A DNA stretch of 24,000 nucleotides from Clostridium sp. Lineage in GTDB: Bacteria; Bacillota; Clostridia; Clostridiales; Clostridiaceae. A program made the translations under genes and the position numbers. Position 1 is the stretch's first letter; each line of letters begins with the position of its first letter. Below the pieces are notes generated by a model. The model saw nothing but the letters and a program-made list of their open reading frames with translations, was not told where the DNA came from and did no database searches. Positions 8,905 to 23,717 of this stretch are shown here, piece by piece. The stretch spans positions 1 through 24,000 of the forward strand of contig NZ_JBNMNU010000014.1 of assembly GCF_051278035.1 (NCBI RefSeq). The letters are read 5' to 3'.

Positions 8905-9248
8905 TCCACAAGTATTAGACCAAAGTGATTCTGAATTTCATCATCATTTCTTAGTATTGCATTCTTTACATCGCTTACATGGACCACTACCAAAAGCTAT
9001 CGCCTTATAATATCCATCTAGTTACAATTGATTTAGTATTTATAATAGATATACTATCTGATCCCATATTCTTTAGCAACAGTTTGTACTTTTCCATATT
9101 AATCTTCCTTCCATTTCTTAAGACTTTTACAGAATCTTAGTTTATGTAATGAAAAATCCCCGTAAGCATCCTCCACTCATTTAACCGTTATTTGGCATAA
9201 TAGCTTAAATCTATATCAACAAATATTAGCATAAGTAAAAGGATGAAG

Positions 9249-9474
9249 TTTCTCCGCAGTGTCTTGCAATAAGAAGGGCAGAAACAATTGAAATTTAATT
9301 TAGAAATTCTTGTTTTGCAATTGTGAAATTCTCGTAAGCCTGCCAGGACGGCAGGCTAGCGAACCTGAGCCAGGAAGGCGAATGTGAGTGTTAGAGTATT
9401 TTACAAGGGCAAAACCTAGAATTTTTTAATGAAATTTCCTGTTTCAAGCTCTTTTGCAAGGCACGCAGGAGAAG
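9249..9474 (+). repeat. Long-hairpin structured element, copy 1 (candidate ncRNA or ERIC/MITE-like palindromic element); strand tentative
   Basis: This is a ~226-nt imperfect palindrome. The left arm (tttctccgca...gaaattctc) pairs with the right arm (gagtattt...acgcaggaga). The 66-nt apical core 9331..9396 is 59% GC and contains hairpin gcctgcc-aggac-ggcaggc. A second copy lies at 22501..22725. Confidence 0.75.
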
Positions 9475-9483
9475 TCGTCATCA

Positions 9484-10134
9484 TTACTTTGCTAAAGCTT
9501 CCGCTATAAGTACTAGTATATGTTCCCTATCTTTTTCGTTATTCTCAAAATCTAACTTATCCACATTTATCTTTAAAATTGGAGATATATCATAGTCCTT
9601 AAAATAAGCCCTATAATTATCATTTAACTTTTCCCAGTACTCACGTTCCACTATTTTCTCATAATCTCGGCCTCTTTTATTGATTTTAGCCATAGCAGAA
9701 TCCACAGAGGTTTCTAAATATACAAGCAATTTAGGCGCCTTGCAATGCTCAATCATATTTTCAAATAAATCCATATATAAATCAAATTCTTCCTTACCCA
9801 TTTCCCCAGCTTCATTTAACATCTTAGCAAAAATTACATCTCCATAAATACTTCTGTCCATTACTGCATTTTTAACCTTAGAAGCATCCTTTATGTGTCT
9901 AAATCTTCTATTAAGAAAAAATATTTGTAACGAAAAACTATATCTCTCCCTATCATAATAAAACTTTTCCAATATAGGATTATCCGCCACCGGCTCCTCA
10001 AAAGGAATATACCCCTTCTCAGCCATTATATTCATAAGCGTACTCTTCCCTACTCCAACCACTCCATCTATAACTATCATATCCCAAGTGCCTCCTCTAT
10101 TTATCTTGCTCAATGCTTCCTTATAAAATCCCAT
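9484..10134 (-). CDS. Deoxynucleoside kinase (dAK/dGK/dCK family)
   Basis: IVIDGVVGVGKSTL P-loop, then FEEPV.DNPILEKFY and FSLQIFFLNRRF, which are dNK family hallmarks. An alternative start at 10080 (MIVIDG) follows AGGAGG with a 10-nt spacer. Confidence 0.9.
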   Translation of the reverse strand: MGFYKEALSKINRGGTWDMIVIDGVVGVGKSTLMNIMAEKGYIPFEEPVADNPILEKFYYDRERYSFSLQIFFLNRRFRHIKDASKVKNAVMDRSIYGDVIFAKMLNEAGEMGKEEFDLYMDLFENMIEHCKAPKLLVYLETSVDSAMAKINKRGRDYEKIVEREYWEKLNDNYRAYFKDYDISPILKINVDKLDFENNEKDREHILVLIAEALAK

Positions 10135-15319: not shown

Positions 15320-16762
15320 CTATGAATATGGAATCACATACTCCTTTATCTTCTCTAATATTTCCCCAATCACCGCTTCCGTACTGACGTTAGAAGTATC
15401 TATAACTAAATCATAATTACTCTCGTCACCAGAATCAATATCATAAATTTCCTTAAATCTACTAACTTCAAGCCTTCTTCTCTCAATTATATTATCCTTA
15501 GCATCCTGCACCCTCGCATACTTCTCTGACTTACCTCTATCATCTTTCATCGCCCGCTGCACTGCGACATCTACATTTACTTTCAAATAAATTTTAAAAG
15601 AATCAGGAATGAAGTTCCATGCGAGCCTAGCATCAAAAATAAAATTTTCTTTATCTCTTCCAATTTCCATAGTTTTATTATCAACCTCATGGTCTAAATT
15701 ATTATCTGACATATATTTGTTGTACTCTGTTATAGACATGCCTTTTTCTATGGCTAACTTCCGCTGTAAATCACCTACACTAAAATAAGTATACTTTAAG
15801 GCCTCACTTATAGCCTTAGCAACGGTACTCTTACCTGAATATAAATCTCCTGTTATCGTTATTTTCATTTTTGTATCATCTCCTTTGCTATCCTTTTCCT
15901 TTTGTCCTACTGTAAGAATTAACACTGAAAACAAAATCAATACGCATCCAATTACAATTCTAAATGACAACTGTTCTTTAAGAATTAACACTCCTAGTAC
16001 GATACTTACTATCGGCTCTAAAGTGCTTAGTATAGCAGCACTAGAAGGACCTATGATTTTTATTCCCTTTAAAAACATTGTAAGGGCTAAAACTGTAGAT
16101 ACTAGAGCAATTCCAAAGCAAGCTACAAAGCCAGAGGGTTTCATATTAAAATCTAATCCTCCAGTAATCATTCCCATCGTAAAGACAACCAGCGAAGATA
16201 TTAAGGCTAGATAAAAGGTCAGCACAAAAATATCAATCCTATTAACCCTATTATGCGAAACTCCAATAATATAATATGCGTAAAAAAAGCCTGAGCTAAT
16301 AGCAAAAGCTATCCCTTTAAAATTTAATGCACCGCCACTATTCCCCACTAACATGTAGATTCCCAAAAGGGATAAACCAAGTGCTAAAATTTTACCAAAG
16401 TATAATTTTTCTTTGTACAAAATCACTGCAAAAACCGTTACTGTTACAGGATAAATAAAATGAAGCGTAGTAGCTAGCCCAACTGTTATATAATTATAGG
16501 ATATAAAAAGTGTATAAGCTGTGGCAGTATATCCCATAATGGCCAAAAGAATAATATGTATTATTCCCTGCTTATTTAATCTCAAATCCTTTTTTGTAAA
16601 AAGTATATAAGGTAATATAATTAGGGAAGCTAAAAAGAACCTAAGAAATACTACTGTTAGCACATTCGCACCACCACTATAAGCCATTTTTACAAAAATC
16701 GGCATAACTCCAAAAGCTGCTGAGGACACTACAGTAAATATTATTCCGTATATCTTTTTCAT
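15320..16762 (-). CDS. EamA/DMT-family transporter (aa 1-~290) fused in frame to a cytidylate-kinase-like P-loop kinase (aa 299-480)
   Basis: There are ten hydrophobic helices in the EamA duplication pattern. After the linker KEKDSKGDDTK comes MKITITGDLYSGKSTVAKAIS... (182 aa). No stop codon separates the two parts. AAAGGAGA (15879..15886) lies 10 nt upstream of the internal ATG at 15868. Confidence 0.8.
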   Translation of the reverse strand: MKKIYGIIFTVVSSAAFGVMPIFVKMAYSGGANVLTVVFLRFFLASLIILPYILFTKKDLRLNKQGIIHIILLAIMGYTATAYTLFISYNYITVGLATTLHFIYPVTVTVFAVILYKEKLYFGKILALGLSLLGIYMLVGNSGGALNFKGIAFAISSGFFYAYYIIGVSHNRVNRIDIFVLTFYLALISSLVVFTMGMITGGLDFNMKPSGFVACFGIALVSTVLALTMFLKGIKIIGPSSAAILSTLEPIVSIVLGVLILKEQLSFRIVIGCVLILFSVLILTVGQKEKDSKGDDTKMKITITGDLYSGKSTVAKAISEALKYTYFSVGDLQRKLAIEKGMSITEYNKYMSDNNLDHEVDNKTMEIGRDKENFIFDARLAWNFIPDSFKIYLKVNVDVAVQRAMKDDRGKSEKYARVQDAKDNIIERRRLEVSRFKEIYDIDSGDESNYDLVIDTSNVSTEAVIGEILEKIKEYVIPYS

Positions 16763-21753: not shown

Positions 21754-22323
21754 TTATCTACTTAATAAAACCTTGAACGTTTCATCCGTAATATCAATAT
21801 CATTCTTATCATAAAAATTTATGTTTTTTGCCTTAGGATATATACTTTGTGTTTCGCTTGGAACTGTGCAATAGGCTATAAAATATTCTTGCTGTGGGAT
21901 ACTAATTTTATATTCCTTGTTTTCCAATGTTACTTTTGTATATGCACTTTTCGTATTAGGATTTTTACCTTTCAAAATAAGATATTTGCCCTTATTTGTT
22001 TTATATATTTGATCTCTAAAATAACCACCGCCACCTCTTATAGCTTCAATTTTATATTTACTATTAAGGCCTTTGGTTAATTCTGCATCACCCAAAGTGT
22101 TATTAGTCATAAATAGAATATATTTTTTATTATCAAGATTTAATTCCTGTTTAATATCAATATTATTTGAAATTGCTGTAGGTCTTTTACTAAATTGCGT
22201 TATATTATCCTCTAATTGTCTTTTATTATCTGTAATTGTATATATTCTTGAATATGAAATAAATACTATACAAACGATTATTATTATTATTATACCTAGT
22301 GAAGCAAAAATACTTTTTTTCAT
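21754..22323 (-). CDS. Membrane-anchored hypothetical protein
   Basis: 189 aa with an N-terminal TM (IIIIIIVCIVFI) and a Lys/Asn-rich extracytoplasmic domain. No family recognised. Confidence 0.7.
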   Translation of the reverse strand: MKKSIFASLGIIIIIIVCIVFISYSRIYTITDNKRQLEDNITQFSKRPTAISNNIDIKQELNLDNKKYILFMTNNTLGDAELTKGLNSKYKIEAIRGGGGYFRDQIYKTNKGKYLILKGKNPNTKSAYTKVTLENKEYKISIPQQEYFIAYCTVPSETQSIYPKAKNINFYDKNDIDITDETFKVLLSR

Positions 22324-22404: not shown

Positions 22405-22440
22405 GTGAAAAAGCGCAAGTCAATAAACTTGCGCTTTTAC
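22405..22440 (-). terminator. Rho-independent terminator of the galE transcription unit
   Basis: aaaagcgcaagt-caataa-acttgcgctttt, followed on the minus strand by tttttcac. It lies downstream of galE and of hairpin-element copy 2. Confidence 0.8.
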
Positions 22441-22500
22441 TAATCCTTTTCTAATATCTTTTCGTTACTATGCACACCACTCATAAAGTTCACATAATAC

Positions 22501-22725
22501 TTTCTCCGCAACGCCTTGCGAAAAGAATCGAGAAACTATTAAATTTGATTTTAGAAATTCTTCTTTTGCGAATGCAAAATTCTCGTAAGTCTGCCAGGAC
22601 GGCAGACTAGCGAACCTGAGCCAGGAAGGCGAATGTGAGCGCTAGAGAATATTGCATGAGCAAAATATTAGAATTACTAGCTTTAATTTCTCGTTTTGAG
22701 TTTCTTATTGCAATAACGCAGGAGA
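22501..22725 (+). repeat. Long-hairpin structured element, copy 2; strand tentative
   Basis: Same architecture as 9249..9474. The first 10 nt (tttctccgca) and last 10 nt (acgcaggaga) are identical in both copies. Core 22582..22647 is 62/66 identical to 9331..9396. The right end is 5 nt from the galE stop codon. Confidence 0.75.
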
Positions 22726-22730
22726 TTCGC

Positions 22731-23717
22731 TTATTTTACGTACCCTTTCGGATGTCCCTTGTGCCACTCCCATGCTGTTGCTATGATGGTTTCTAGTGAA
22801 TCACATTTAGGCTCCCATCCTAATATTTCCTTAGCCTTTTCACTCGAAGCGATAAGCACTGCTGGATCTCCAGCACGTCTTGGTGCCATTTCTGCTTTTA
22901 TTTCTTTTCCCGTAACTTTTCTAGTTACATCTATTACCTCTTTAACAGAAAAACCCTTACCGTTTCCAAGATTGCATATTACGCTATCTTCGCCTCGTCT
23001 AAGCCTTTTTACTGCAAGCAGATGAGCACTGGCAAGATCAGATACATGTACATAATCTCTAACACAAGTACCATCAGCTGTATCATAATCCTCTCCAAAC
23101 ACCATTATTTTTTCTCTTTGTAAAAGAGCTACCTGAAGTATAATAGGAATTAAATGAGATTCTGGTCTATGATCTTCTCCTATTTTACCGCTTACATGTG
23201 CCCCTGCTGCATTGAAATATCTTAGAGCCGTATATTTTATACCATAAGCTTTATCACACCATTTTAAGATCTTCTCAACCGCAAGTTTTGATTCTCCATA
23301 AGGATTAGTTGGAAAAGTCATATCCTCTTCAAGAATAGGAATATTCTCTGGCTCTCCATAAGTAGCTGCAGTAGATGAAAAAACTATGTACTTAACTTTA
23401 TGCTCCCTCATAGCCTTAAGTAAATTTATAGTAGATCCAATGTTATTTTCAAAATACTTTAAGGGCTCCGTAACGCTTTCCCCCACAAGTGAATCTGCCG
23501 CGAAATCTATAACTGCATCTATATTATTCTCCGTAAAAACCTTATTAAGTATTTCGTCGTCTCTTAAATCTCCAGAATAAATCTTTCCACCAAGTAATGA
23601 ATCATGATGGCCCTTTTGAAAATTATCTAAAACAACTACCTCTTCACCTTTTTCTAAAAGCTCAGCTACCATATGACTTCCAATGTAACCTGCTCCTCCA
23701 CATACTAAAATAGCCAT
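22731..23717 (-). CDS. galE: UDP-glucose 4-epimerase
   Basis: [15 protein letters not shown] (NAD Rossmann), SSTAATYG and YGESK (the SDR catalytic Y..K); 328 aa. Confidence 0.95.

Follow-up and report, generated by a model that had tools for sequence, protein, structure and literature searches.

The long inverted repeat lying downstream of galE in the window (the whole 24,000-nucleotide stretch of Clostridium DNA that was analysed) belongs, by homology and as a divergent representative, to the TwoAYGGAY RNA motif (Rfam RF01731, CsrB/RsmB clan), and thus to an already catalogued family. The hairpin is real and strongly structure-conserved, and its conserved structure is on the + strand, antisense to and convergent with galE. 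The explanation as a whole, that of a TwoAYGGAY-type RNA convergent with galE, dispersed as a gene-end repeat and likely bound by CsrA, is considered somewhat probable. TwoAYGGAY has been in Rfam since 2010 with no demonstrated function, the sole recorded hypothesis being that of a CsrA decoy in Clostridia, which is unvalidated.

Location of the element and its family

Two copies are present in the window, the second of them between galE and a terminator-like hairpin:

9239 to 9481, + strand: copy 1, type A, adjoining the stop codon of a deoxynucleoside kinase gene (9484 to 10134, - strand)
22410 to 22437, no strand assigned: terminator-like G+C hairpin between A and T runs, seen in the sequence about 60 nt past copy 2 on the galE sense strand
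22491 to 22734, + strand: copy 2, full type A element including the outer inverted repeat, with limits projected from the family profile, alignments and nhmmer
22731 to 23717, - strand: galE, UDP-glucose 4-epimerase family (Pfam Epimerase, 2.4e-59; ORF list)

Copy 2 is an imperfect palindrome of about 245 bp, of which positions 22501-22725 form the inner part, and blastn gives 79% identity between both copies over the whole length. The ends proposed initially are correct as sequence, as the decamers tttctccgca (from 22501) and acgcaggaga (up to 22725) are the same in copy 1; nevertheless, the inverted repeat extends about 10 nt more on each side, to 22491-22734. From those narrower limits there are 5 nt to the galE stop, in agreement with the initial annotation, and in the full element the stop codon (22731-22733) lies inside the outer repeat. 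The terminator claimed beyond copy 2 was also recognized, as the hairpin at 22410-22437, which Rfam matches partially, on both strands, to terminator hairpins of sRNAs.

At least about 75 full copies of the element were found in psychrotolerant Clostridium genomes and metagenomes, and they split into two subfamilies, A (including both window copies) and B, which share the apex and differ in their distal arms and ends. Even so, a type B profile matches both window copies (E 5e-18 and 1e-13). The element measures roughly 245-300 nt in the family, with a closing stem (P1) of about 75 pairs and the ends AGTATGAAnT...AnTTCATACT, this outer repeat reaching or overlapping the galE stop codon in copy 2. 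In the C. estertheticum group, a culturable clade, genomes apparently carry it in many copies. A blastn comparison of copy 2 with plasmid and phage collections gave no match, pattern scans of viral contigs gave nothing relevant, and the literature on C. estertheticum repeats, EFAR and REP with trans-translation gave nothing usable.

Conserved fold

The RNA read from the + strand folds into a long stem whose tip is a three-way junction with two adjacent hairpins, each carrying a C-AGGAN-G loop:

22501 to 22587, + strand: 5' arm of P1 within the limits first annotated (helices 1-5 of the covariation analysis)
22588 to 22608, + strand: hairpin 1 (P2), 8-bp stem with the pentaloop AGGAC at 22596-22600 (CAGGACG), with covariation at all 8 pairs and 98.4% of cells paired
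22610 to 22640, + strand: hairpin 2 (P3), with the loop AGGAA at 22623-22627 (CAGGAAG), tandem G.A pairs (22618-19/22631-32) and a conserved C.U
22641 to 22725, + strand: 3' arm of P1, including two unpaired junction bases (22641-22642)

The two GGA loops of copy 2 are spaced by 27 nt, and the GGA loops are invariant among the copies, which is partly imposed by the search patterns used to collect them. For copy 2 the fold has z-scores of -5.0 (+ strand) and -5.9 (- strand), and none of 200 shuffles folded as well. Among 47 type A copies, compensatory double changes occur at 58 of 83 pairs and 92.3% of cells are paired, against 27-45% when the partners are slid, and all five covariation measures are better than in 500 of 500 shuffles. 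Comparing A and B, covariation is seen all along P2 and P3, the stem of hairpin 2 being found as GCC/GGC, GGC/GCC and GAC/GTC. The G.A/A.G tandem at 22618-19 with 22631-32 is invariant in 59 cores, and at the second G.A tandem of type A, type B has A-U/C-G Watson-Crick pairs instead. This massive covariation, together with an apex kept across A and B and the lack of target duplications, supports the earlier view that selection on the fold explains the element better than a recent plain MITE.

Regarding the 66-nt core (22582-22647), exactly four positions distinguish it from copy 1 (22590, 22606, 22640 and 22642), as had been counted, and three of them are paired, not all four as proposed. The change at 22590/22606 is a genuine double one, from C-G to U-A in hairpin 1. 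Position 22640 does turn a G.U into a G-C, with the G at 22610 in hairpin 2 as its partner instead of the one assigned before. Meanwhile, 22642, also read as a G.U to G-C change, sits unpaired in the junction and can be any of the four bases among family members (T 42, A 9, C 7, G 1). With the tagcg/cgcta register behind that reading, 13 of 59 cores would have A.C in the second pair, as would 15 of 15 type B cores in the fifth, and the register therefore does not hold.

Membership of the TwoAYGGAY family

Siblings of both types match RF01731: six of type A (59.6-76.3 bits) and six of type B (46.4-62.9 bits) are over the Rfam threshold, and the type B sibling L066 is aligned end to end with 58.3 bits (gathering score 43). 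A type A copy that passes (L018, 2930-3083) is 91% identical to copy 1 of the window. The motif first surfaced on scanning a type B relative. For both window copies, RF01731 was absent from the Rfam scan results, at the gathering threshold as well as with E<=10, including when a stretch of 167 nt was scanned, and 12 further type A copies were likewise missed, among them L082, the core of which is identical to that of L092, a copy that passes; loss at the speed filters is a plausible cause. The filtered scan misses most copies of the pentaloop subtype, and therefore genome annotations under-report it. With the filters off, the model CM R1, built only from the 12 RF01731-positive siblings (6 type A and 6 type B), gives 151.9 bits for copy 1 (9288-9440) and 146.3 bits for copy 2 (E 3e-29) on the + strand, the latter over the following stretch:

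22539 to 22692, + strand: TwoAYGGAY core and inner P1 as matched by CM R1 (146.3 bits; 32.9 bits for the same span on the - strand)

The topology, with P1 enclosing two adjacent hairpins, is the same as in the Rfam consensus structure line. Copy 2 lacks the AYGGAY hexaloop, keeping the A, the GGA and the closing C-G but having no Y after the A. In the family the loop consensus is A-GGA-N, and the strict AYGGAY loop is not operationally required, because the Rfam model still accepts siblings with loops of the AGGAC/AGGAA type. As for other known RNAs, hammerhead and other ribozymes, SRP, 6S and K-turn were discarded, judging from the sequence, as their defining motifs are lacking and no Rfam match was obtained. 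A meaningless origin, by chance inverted repeats in AT-rich intergenic DNA, has next to no probability; the low genome G+C would favour it, and nothing else does, and it is refuted by the copy number (at least about 75 full copies in many genomes), by covariation above all controls, by the scores of CM R1 and the matches of siblings to an Rfam family, and by fold z-scores of -5 to -6.

Position at gene ends

At 31 distinct genes, each convergent with the element, the element's 3' end adjoins the stop codon, which lies at -6 to +12 nt from the hairpin base in most copies. A systematic placement near stop codons, raised in the initial annotation, is borne out by the family, since 36 of the 47 evaluable type A copies are at most 30 nt away, compared to 1 of 50 at the other end. 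Moreover, the orientation is about 97% one-sided relative to the adjacent gene, and in head-to-head pairs some 400 bp apart at convergent genes (e.g., L056) each element follows its own gene, so that replication direction, in the style of IS200/IS605, cannot explain the orientation. The stop-codon rule and the DNA-level turnover of TwoAYGGAY described below are apparently unreported so far; the former, found at 31 independent genes, is absent from the original description and constrains any functional model.

Strand of the conserved structure

On the - strand, CM R1 gives only 35 bits for copy 1 and 33 bits for copy 2, and the RF01731 matches of the siblings fall on the + (RNA) strand. The minimum free energy is lower on the + strand by 5.0 kcal/mol for 47 type A copies (p 2e-4) and by 7.4 kcal/mol for 18 type B copies (p 8e-5). 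In addition, 139 G.U cells are counted versus 75 A.C cells, the high-frequency sites being all G.U, and the tandem G.A pairs would turn into U.C/C.U if read on the - strand. Mutation bias was rejected by reasoning as the source of the G.U excess, since deamination of C to T in the sense strand, when exposed, would lead to more wobbles on the other strand.

A transcript of the + strand would thus be the structured form, and its transcription is inferred. Upstream of the element on that strand, a conserved promoter was not found, only weak, non-conserved promoter-like sites; the left end of type B has a conserved TATAAT-like sequence with no -35, and the terminator-like hairpin is just upstream of copy 2. 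After the element there is no clear U-tract (only 50-60% T), and a role as intrinsic terminator was rejected on account of this tail and because the sense strand has no U-run after the element. Nor was the SD-like GGAGA of the element ends retained as a translation start, since a start codon is absent after it.

The initial annotation saw the functional form in the 3'UTR of galE on its sense strand, where a hairpin of about 240 nt, similar to REP, ERIC or Correia elements, would act as a barrier to 3'-exonucleases, an RNase III site or a ribosome obstacle. On the galE sense strand, copy 2 comes after the stop codon and before the terminator-like hairpin, no other terminator lying within this interval, and at the distances seen in the family a terminating ribosome would have to melt the hairpin base; the - strand also folds well, as its z-score indicates. 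Liang et al. (2015) reportedly observed ribosome stalling by REP sequences located up to about 15 nt from a stop codon, which would count for the same reading. Further points in its favour are that REPs are mainly downstream of coding regions (PMC3733652) and that the effect of ERIC on mRNA stability depends on the orientation (PMC2229807). However, all the strand-sensitive measures favour the opposite strand, and on the sense strand, besides the loss of the tandem G.A pairs, the frequent G.U pairs become A.C. A simple barrier hairpin has no need of a conserved apex, and in the locus family of L010, L013 and L014 the gene's own terminator lies before the element. A sense-strand function is hence distinctly unlikely: because the structured strand runs antisense to galE, its 3'UTR would carry only the reverse complement.

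Turnover at the DNA level

Besides its conserved fold, the element is a dispersed and turning-over DNA repeat, and the choice once posed between a folded molecule and a MITE is a false dichotomy. Types A and B replace each other at the same gene end in different genomes (6 sites), at least 10 left-half copies stop exactly in the loop of hairpin 1, which marks a breakpoint hot spot, and a 47-nt hairpin module is inserted at this loop and at two other core sites. Two remnants are seen in the window itself:

9122 to 9171, + strand: left-arm fragment of type B, truncated within hairpin 1 and located 67 nt before copy 1 (nhmmer, type B profile, E 4.6e-11)
15330 to 15344, + strand: about 15 nt like the right end of a type A element (GGAATCACATACTCC), by comparison of flanks and sequences

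At the site orthologous to the first one, L018 has a type B element with its left arm cut by the contig end, and at the site equivalent to the second one the metagenome locus L046 has a full copy. Pairs of filled and nearly empty sites, with a right-end remnant left in the latter, are L046 versus the window and L054 versus L089.

These dynamics are equally compatible with a purely selfish repeat, similar to REPINs or MITEs, with hairpins as the single-stranded DNA substrate of a transposase or recombinase (e.g., Y1/HUH). The pairing would then be kept since only foldable copies propagate, gene ends would be tolerated landing sites, and no RNA function would exist. The multi-copy, dispersed nature of the family speaks for this, as do the A/B replacements, the left halves, the module insertions and the lack of a conserved promoter, and both right-end remnants resembling excision footprints and compensatory changes are known from REPINs (PMC3116915). 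On the other side, no target-site duplication is visible in two dozen copies with their flanks read, nor around AGTATG...CATACT in the aligned copies, as the initial annotation had noticed for the window. In 655 kb of loci, neither an autonomous IS with the same ends, nor a transposase flanked by elements, nor a RAYT gene was seen; the sole Y1 transposase, searched with an IS200 TnpA sequence, belongs to an ordinary tnpA/tnpB of the IS605 type, which L008 has at 1.3 kb from a copy. The strand asymmetry and an orientation that follows the adjacent gene even in head-to-head pairs are against it as well, and the same junction-plus-GGA-loop design is catalogued for TwoAYGGAY in gamma-proteobacteria and gut Clostridiales, an unusual range for a single MITE lineage. 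As for the breakpoints, they are near the geometric centre of the palindrome, where generic palindrome fragility could make them. A purely selfish nature is thus regarded as unlikely, without being far-fetched.

Proposed mechanism

In the preferred reading, that of a TwoAYGGAY-type RNA, the + strand transcript would display two C-AGGAN-G hairpins on the three-way-junction tip of a very long P1, and the two loops, 27 nt apart, would contact the two RNA-binding faces of a protein dimer. CsrA is the leading candidate, as CAGGACG (P2) and CAGGAAG (P3) fit its loop motif, CAGGA(U/A/C)G, which is repeated in the hairpin loops of CsrB, and CsrA dimers bridge sites 10-63 nt apart (PMC7652899). The transcript could then serve as a decoy or regulatory platform for CsrA. 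Since the read-through transcript of the neighbour gene is perfectly complementary, expression of that gene could antagonise the element RNA, any effect on galE being likewise inferred. Against CsrA, SELEX indicates that long stable stems under GGA loops may disfavour it, and the stems closing the loops in the element are long and stable. A csrA gene was not found in 655 kb of loci, its presence in the host genomes being assumed.

As described by Gardner and Eldai (2015; PMC4333381), TwoAYGGAY was independently put forward as a CsrA-binding sRNA of Clostridia, two tandem GAs being noted in one stem, and CsrA-antagonist sRNAs have so far been identified in Gammaproteobacteria only (PMC4333381). 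A bolder extension, in which TwoAYGGAY would be a self-propagating, gene-end-seeking module that places a two-site CsrA-type decoy convergent to the 3' end of a host gene, and whose roughly 100 copies per genome form a distributed protein sponge, each gated by the transcription of its neighbour, is offered as a long shot. Were this extension true, Firmicutes could have a first RNA-based antagonist of CsrA, with a regulatory RNA at the heart of a mobile element.

Comparison with known systems

Short target-site duplications on both sides and a relationship to known IS families are usual for classical MITEs, in contrast to the element, with no visible target duplication and no parent IS seen. 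ERIC, Correia/NEMIS, RUP and BOX (PMC2229807) are also imperfect palindromes, of 100-250 bp and some with internal insertions, that are transcribed with neighbour genes, orientation-dependent effects on mRNA stability being known for ERIC; the element differs by its orientation, one-sided relative to the adjacent gene. REPIN/REP sequences, mobilised by RAYT (PMC3116915, PMC3733652), are likewise hairpin-forming, non-autonomous and vertically persistent extragenic repeats, mostly downstream of genes, with compensatory changes and a short right-end remnant upon excision. However, the window element is two to three times longer and has an asymmetric, conserved three-way-junction apex, and REPINs are described as randomly distributed extragenically, whereas the element follows a rule of stop codon and orientation. 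A short REP unit tagged by GTAG/CGTC is not demonstrated in the element, the bases before hairpin 1 being GTAAG or GTGAG, with GTAGG or GTAGT only in L014, L022 and L090.

Similar to the CsrB/RsmB/RsmZ sRNAs (Rfam clan CL00106), the element has CAGGA(U/A/C)G in hairpin loops, at a spacing inside the range of CsrA dimers, and weak CsrB fragments are the only clan matches on copy 1 of the window. It differs by having two sites per RNA, compared to about 18 in CsrB, by its long, stable stems, and by a promoter or terminator of defined type not being found.

Compared with TwoAYGGAY itself, the element has pentaloops (A-GGA-N) instead of hexaloops (A-Y-GGA-Y) and an extreme P1, of about 75 pairs, with P1 already noted as 'often very large' in the original description (Weinberg et al. 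2010, PMC2864571 supplement). That description does not flag the motif as repetitive, transposon-associated or acting at the DNA level, unlike the dispersed gene-end repeat seen here, and, if confirmed, spread and replacement at the DNA level would change the view of the family. Both share the long P1 around two adjacent hairpins, GGA loops closed by C-G, tandem G.A pairs in one stem, strong covariation with modest non-canonical pairs, and their occurrence in Clostridia.

The element and its two copies

The element behind galE (copy 2) reads tttctccgca...acgcaggaga between 22501 and 22725, as initially annotated, and a direct repeat of it is present in the window at ~9250-9472 (copy 1). The terminal decamers are common to both copies, and the 66-nt cores differ at exactly the four positions expected (22590, 22606, 22640 and 22642), the overall identity being 79%. 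However, these limits lie inside the repeat: in the family alignment, the inverted repeat is ~10 nt longer per side (AGTATGAAnT...AnTTCATACT), and the full extent of copy 2 is 22491-22734, overlapping the galE stop codon. Copy 2 folds as one long hairpin on either strand (z -5.0 for the + strand, -5.9 for the - strand), none of 200 shuffles being equally good, and the terminator described beyond it corresponds to a terminator-like hairpin at 22410-22437. The features surrounding the two copies are as follows.

22731-22733, stop codon of galE (Pfam Epimerase, 2.4e-59)
9484-9486, end of the deoxynucleoside kinase gene, adjoining copy 1
9122-9171, + strand, left-arm fragment of type B, its end falling precisely within hairpin 1 (...ccccgtaagcatcc); full copy 1 follows 67 nt downstream

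Searching with a 19-mer of the core retrieved ~27 psychrotolerant Clostridium loci (C. estertheticum, C. frigoris, C. bowmanii, C. tagluense, C. algoriphilum and related MAGs) and a degenerate core pattern retrieved 50 metagenome contigs, while searches of plasmid, phage and viral contig collections gave no match. A profile search over 94 sources returned 121 matches, comprising ~55 full copies of type A, the subfamily of both window copies, ~20 of a second subfamily, type B, and partial copies as the remainder. The two types differ in their distal arms and ends, with the apex and adjoining arm segments being homologous. Two ~110-nt "mini" derivatives possess the ends only (profile positions 3-58 plus 172-243; L003 5670-5778, - strand, and L086 1396-1506, + strand, among the collected loci), as would result if the centre of the palindrome had been deleted.

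Assignment to TwoAYGGAY

Copy 2 is best explained as belonging to a known family, TwoAYGGAY (RF01731), of which it is a new, pentaloop-type member. A type B copy matched this Rfam family over its full length, scoring 58.3 bits (gathering score 43), on the strand equivalent to the window + strand. Five further type B copies (46.4-62.9 bits) and six type A copies (59.6-76.3 bits) were also above the gathering level, one of the latter, L018 2930-3083, having 91% identity to copy 1. Rfam's filtered cmscan reported the family for only 6 of ~20 scanned type A copies; it was unreported for both window copies, even from a 167-nt stretch, and twelve other type A copies were also missed. This detection is patchy, as the core of a missed copy (L082) is identical to that of a passing one (L092), and loss at the speed filters is a plausible cause. 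Since near-consensus copies such as L082 escape the scan, this pentaloop subtype is likely under-annotated in genomes. In view of the patchy detection, a covariance model was built solely from twelve RF01731-positive sequences and run on the window with filters off, scoring copy 1 at 151.9 bits and copy 2 at 146.3 bits (22539-22692, + strand), compared to 35.3 and 32.9 bits on the - strand.

TwoAYGGAY was described as having two terminal AYGGAY loops and a P1 stem that is "often very large", occurring in Clostridia, gamma-proteobacteria and the human gut (PMC2864571 and supplement). The original coding gave it strong covariation and modest non-canonical pairing, and did not class it as cis-regulatory, repetitive or transposon-associated (PMC2864571). 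Gardner and Eldai pointed out two tandem GAs in one stem and that the CsrA-binding motif is strongly matched, proposing a clostridial CsrA-binding sRNA, still unvalidated (PMC4333381). These descriptions fit the element, and its loop sequences point to the same CsrA-type reading independently of the Rfam match.

Secondary structure and covariation

When 47 distinct type A copies are aligned with MAFFT, standard pairs occupy 92.3% of cells, compared to 27-45% after sliding the partners by 1-3 columns; changes on both sides occur at 58 of 83 pairs, and all five pairing measures exceed those of 500/500 shuffles. The apex, a three-way junction at the tip of the long closing stem P1, was refined by comparing 59 distinct cores of types A and B without gaps. 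P1 extends to a pair that switches from A-U to G-C in 12 sequences, and hairpin 1 (P2) has eight pairs, with covariation at every one, and the loop AGGAC. Hairpin 2 (P3) starts with G-C and C-G. Two positions follow, occupied by G.A/A.G in type A and by A-U/C-G in type B, and then come two pairs with covariation, a C.U that is conserved, U-A, a G.A/A.G tandem that never varies and three pairs, the middle one being C-G, G-C or A-U, closed by the loop AGGAN. That the loops and some junction bases do not vary was partly imposed by the search patterns, the covarying positions being free to vary; AGGA is retained in both loops by five of the seven copies found as by-catch only.

This comparison contradicts the tagcg/cgcta helix of the initial annotation, in which the four differences between the cores of copies 1 and 2 all fall on pairs. 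Two of them do form a compensatory pair in P2 and one converts G.U to G-C in P3, but the fourth is an unpaired, freely varying junction base.

Strand of the conserved RNA

Every strand-sensitive measure points to the + strand, antisense to galE and the kinase gene, as seen in the covariance-model scores, folding energy, G.U excess and G.A tandems. For 47 type A copies, the folding energy of the + strand RNA lies 5.0 kcal/mol below that of the - strand (p 2e-4), and for 18 type B copies the gap is 7.4 kcal/mol (p 8e-5). G.U cells number 139 against 75 A.C cells, with all high-frequency sites being G.U, and the conserved G.A tandems become pyrimidine mismatches if read from the - strand. Mutation bias was rejected as the source of this asymmetry, as by reasoning it predicts the opposite one.

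These measures bear on the rival idea that a sense-strand hairpin alters galE mRNA fate or translation termination. Copy 2 folds on that strand too, and at the DNA level the earlier claim of at least co-transcription as a galE 3'UTR may hold, but such a transcript would be the complement of the conserved RNA. Transcription of the + strand would be expected under the TwoAYGGAY reading. No conserved + strand promoter was found: the consensus matches beside the window copies are weak, the type B left end is TATAAT-like without a -35, and the tail downstream of the element is no more than T-rich. Outside the type B left inverted repeat, ~15 nt (TATAAATTATAATCA) are conserved and unmirrored at the right end (in L064, L066, L073 and L086, for example), holding a perfect TATAAT placed for transcription from the 5' end of the hairpin on the + strand, with no conserved -35.

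Position at gene ends

The placement near stop codons proposed earlier holds for most copies, in which a convergent ORF stops close to the + strand 3' end.

Convergent ORF stops within 30 nt of the element ends (evaluable copies)
Type A: 3' end, 36/47, mostly -6 to +12 nt; 5' end, 1/50
Type B: 3' end, 10/18; 5' end, 0/16

With a 60-codon threshold, the rule holds for 52 of 75 copies, beside 31 distinct flanking genes. The outer repeat itself contains the stop codon in some copies (TGA in AGTATGAAGG at L046, TAA at L028). Head-to-head pairs between convergent genes are each oriented by their own gene, such as those ~400 bp apart in L056, thus tying orientation to the gene and not to replication direction. 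This rule is apparently unreported for the element, and may reflect either insertion preference or selection.

Turnover at the DNA level

No target-site duplication is visible in the two dozen copies with flanks examined, in agreement with the initial annotation. At six gene ends, the subfamily present is type A or type B depending on the genome, and the kinase-gene end is one of these (type A in the window; type B in L018, its left arm cut by the contig end). At the end of a 437-aa gene, type A occurs in L012, L045, L083, L084 and L090 and type B in L066, L070 and L078.

At least ten left-half copies end in the hairpin 1 loop, usually just upstream of a full copy abutting a stop codon; examples are those of L070, L071 (twice), L079, L081, L084, L093 and window 9122-9171. 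Tandem arrays in L071 (6789-7338, - strand), L081 (7156-7522, - strand), L070 and L084 follow the order left half to the hairpin 1 loop, short spacer (a module hairpin in L071), left half, full copy and stop codon, the gene-adjoining full copy always being the youngest-looking; one idea is break repair copying an ectopic copy.

A 47-nt module, CATAACAATTAATAATTGTTATG then TCCCCCAGAGAACTACCCAGAGG, with a perfect 10-bp hairpin (CATAACAATT/AATTGTTATG) before TCCCCCAGAGAACTACCCAGAGG, occurs in the collected loci only inside elements and in constant orientation, at three core sites including the hairpin 1 loop, its state varying among positionally orthologous copies (L005, L008 at 2188-2234, L010, L011, L019, L021, L025, L030, L039, L040 and L063). 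It is absent from the window. The orthologous region of L040 (5287-5636) has no counterpart of the 189-aa ORF downstream of copy 2 (window 21754-22323, - strand) or of the terminator at 22410-22437, their place being taken by a degenerate second element copy with the module (L040 5442-5600).

The full copy of metagenome locus L046 (341-583) corresponds in the window to a remnant of ~15 nt resembling a type A right end (GGAATCACATACTCC, 15330-15344), which lies within the 3' terminal part of ORF 15320-16762 (- strand). The orthologous ORF of L046 takes its TGA stop from the outer repeat of the element; in the window, the ORF continues across the remnant and stops at a TAG further on. Similarly, L089 has a 45-nt right-end remnant of a copy intact in L054.

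Such remnants recall the asymmetric excision footprints of REPINs (PMC3116915), and another rival explanation holds that the element is REPIN-like selfish DNA only, its single-stranded fold serving propagation. The sole Y1 transposase in the collected loci belongs to an ordinary IS605-type tnpA/tnpB in L008 (85-706, - strand; 134-aa tnpA and the tnpB start), 1.3 kb from an element copy, with no sign of a family link.

Copy 2 differs from its positional orthologue in L040 at 19% of sites (43/225), with five doubly compensated pairs, compared to 27% (36/135) of galE fourfold-degenerate sites. As copies are replaced at fixed sites, these differences are no clean readout of in-place compensatory evolution.

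Significance and relation to known systems

The element is real and well supported, and its family is already catalogued, thus representing no new class. The best-supported reading is that TwoAYGGAY in this Clostridium clade is a dispersed repeat docked at gene ends; the selfish-DNA and sense-hairpin explanations are not mutually exclusive with it or with each other. As far as searches show, there is no earlier report of the positional rule, of the repeat character with its turnover, or of the pentaloop subtype, which the Rfam scan largely misses; these features make this old orphan motif more testable.

The most plausible function would be to present the two GGA loops to an RNA-binding protein that is dimeric, such as CsrA. 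RF01731 shares clan CL00106 with CsrB/RsmB. The loop of the element is A-GGA-N, with five bases, whereas that of the family is A-Y-GGA-Y, with six; both loops are CAGGA(C/A/T)G, the CsrB repeat unit, and lie 27 nt apart, within the 10-63 nt range of CsrA dimer bridging (PMC7652899).
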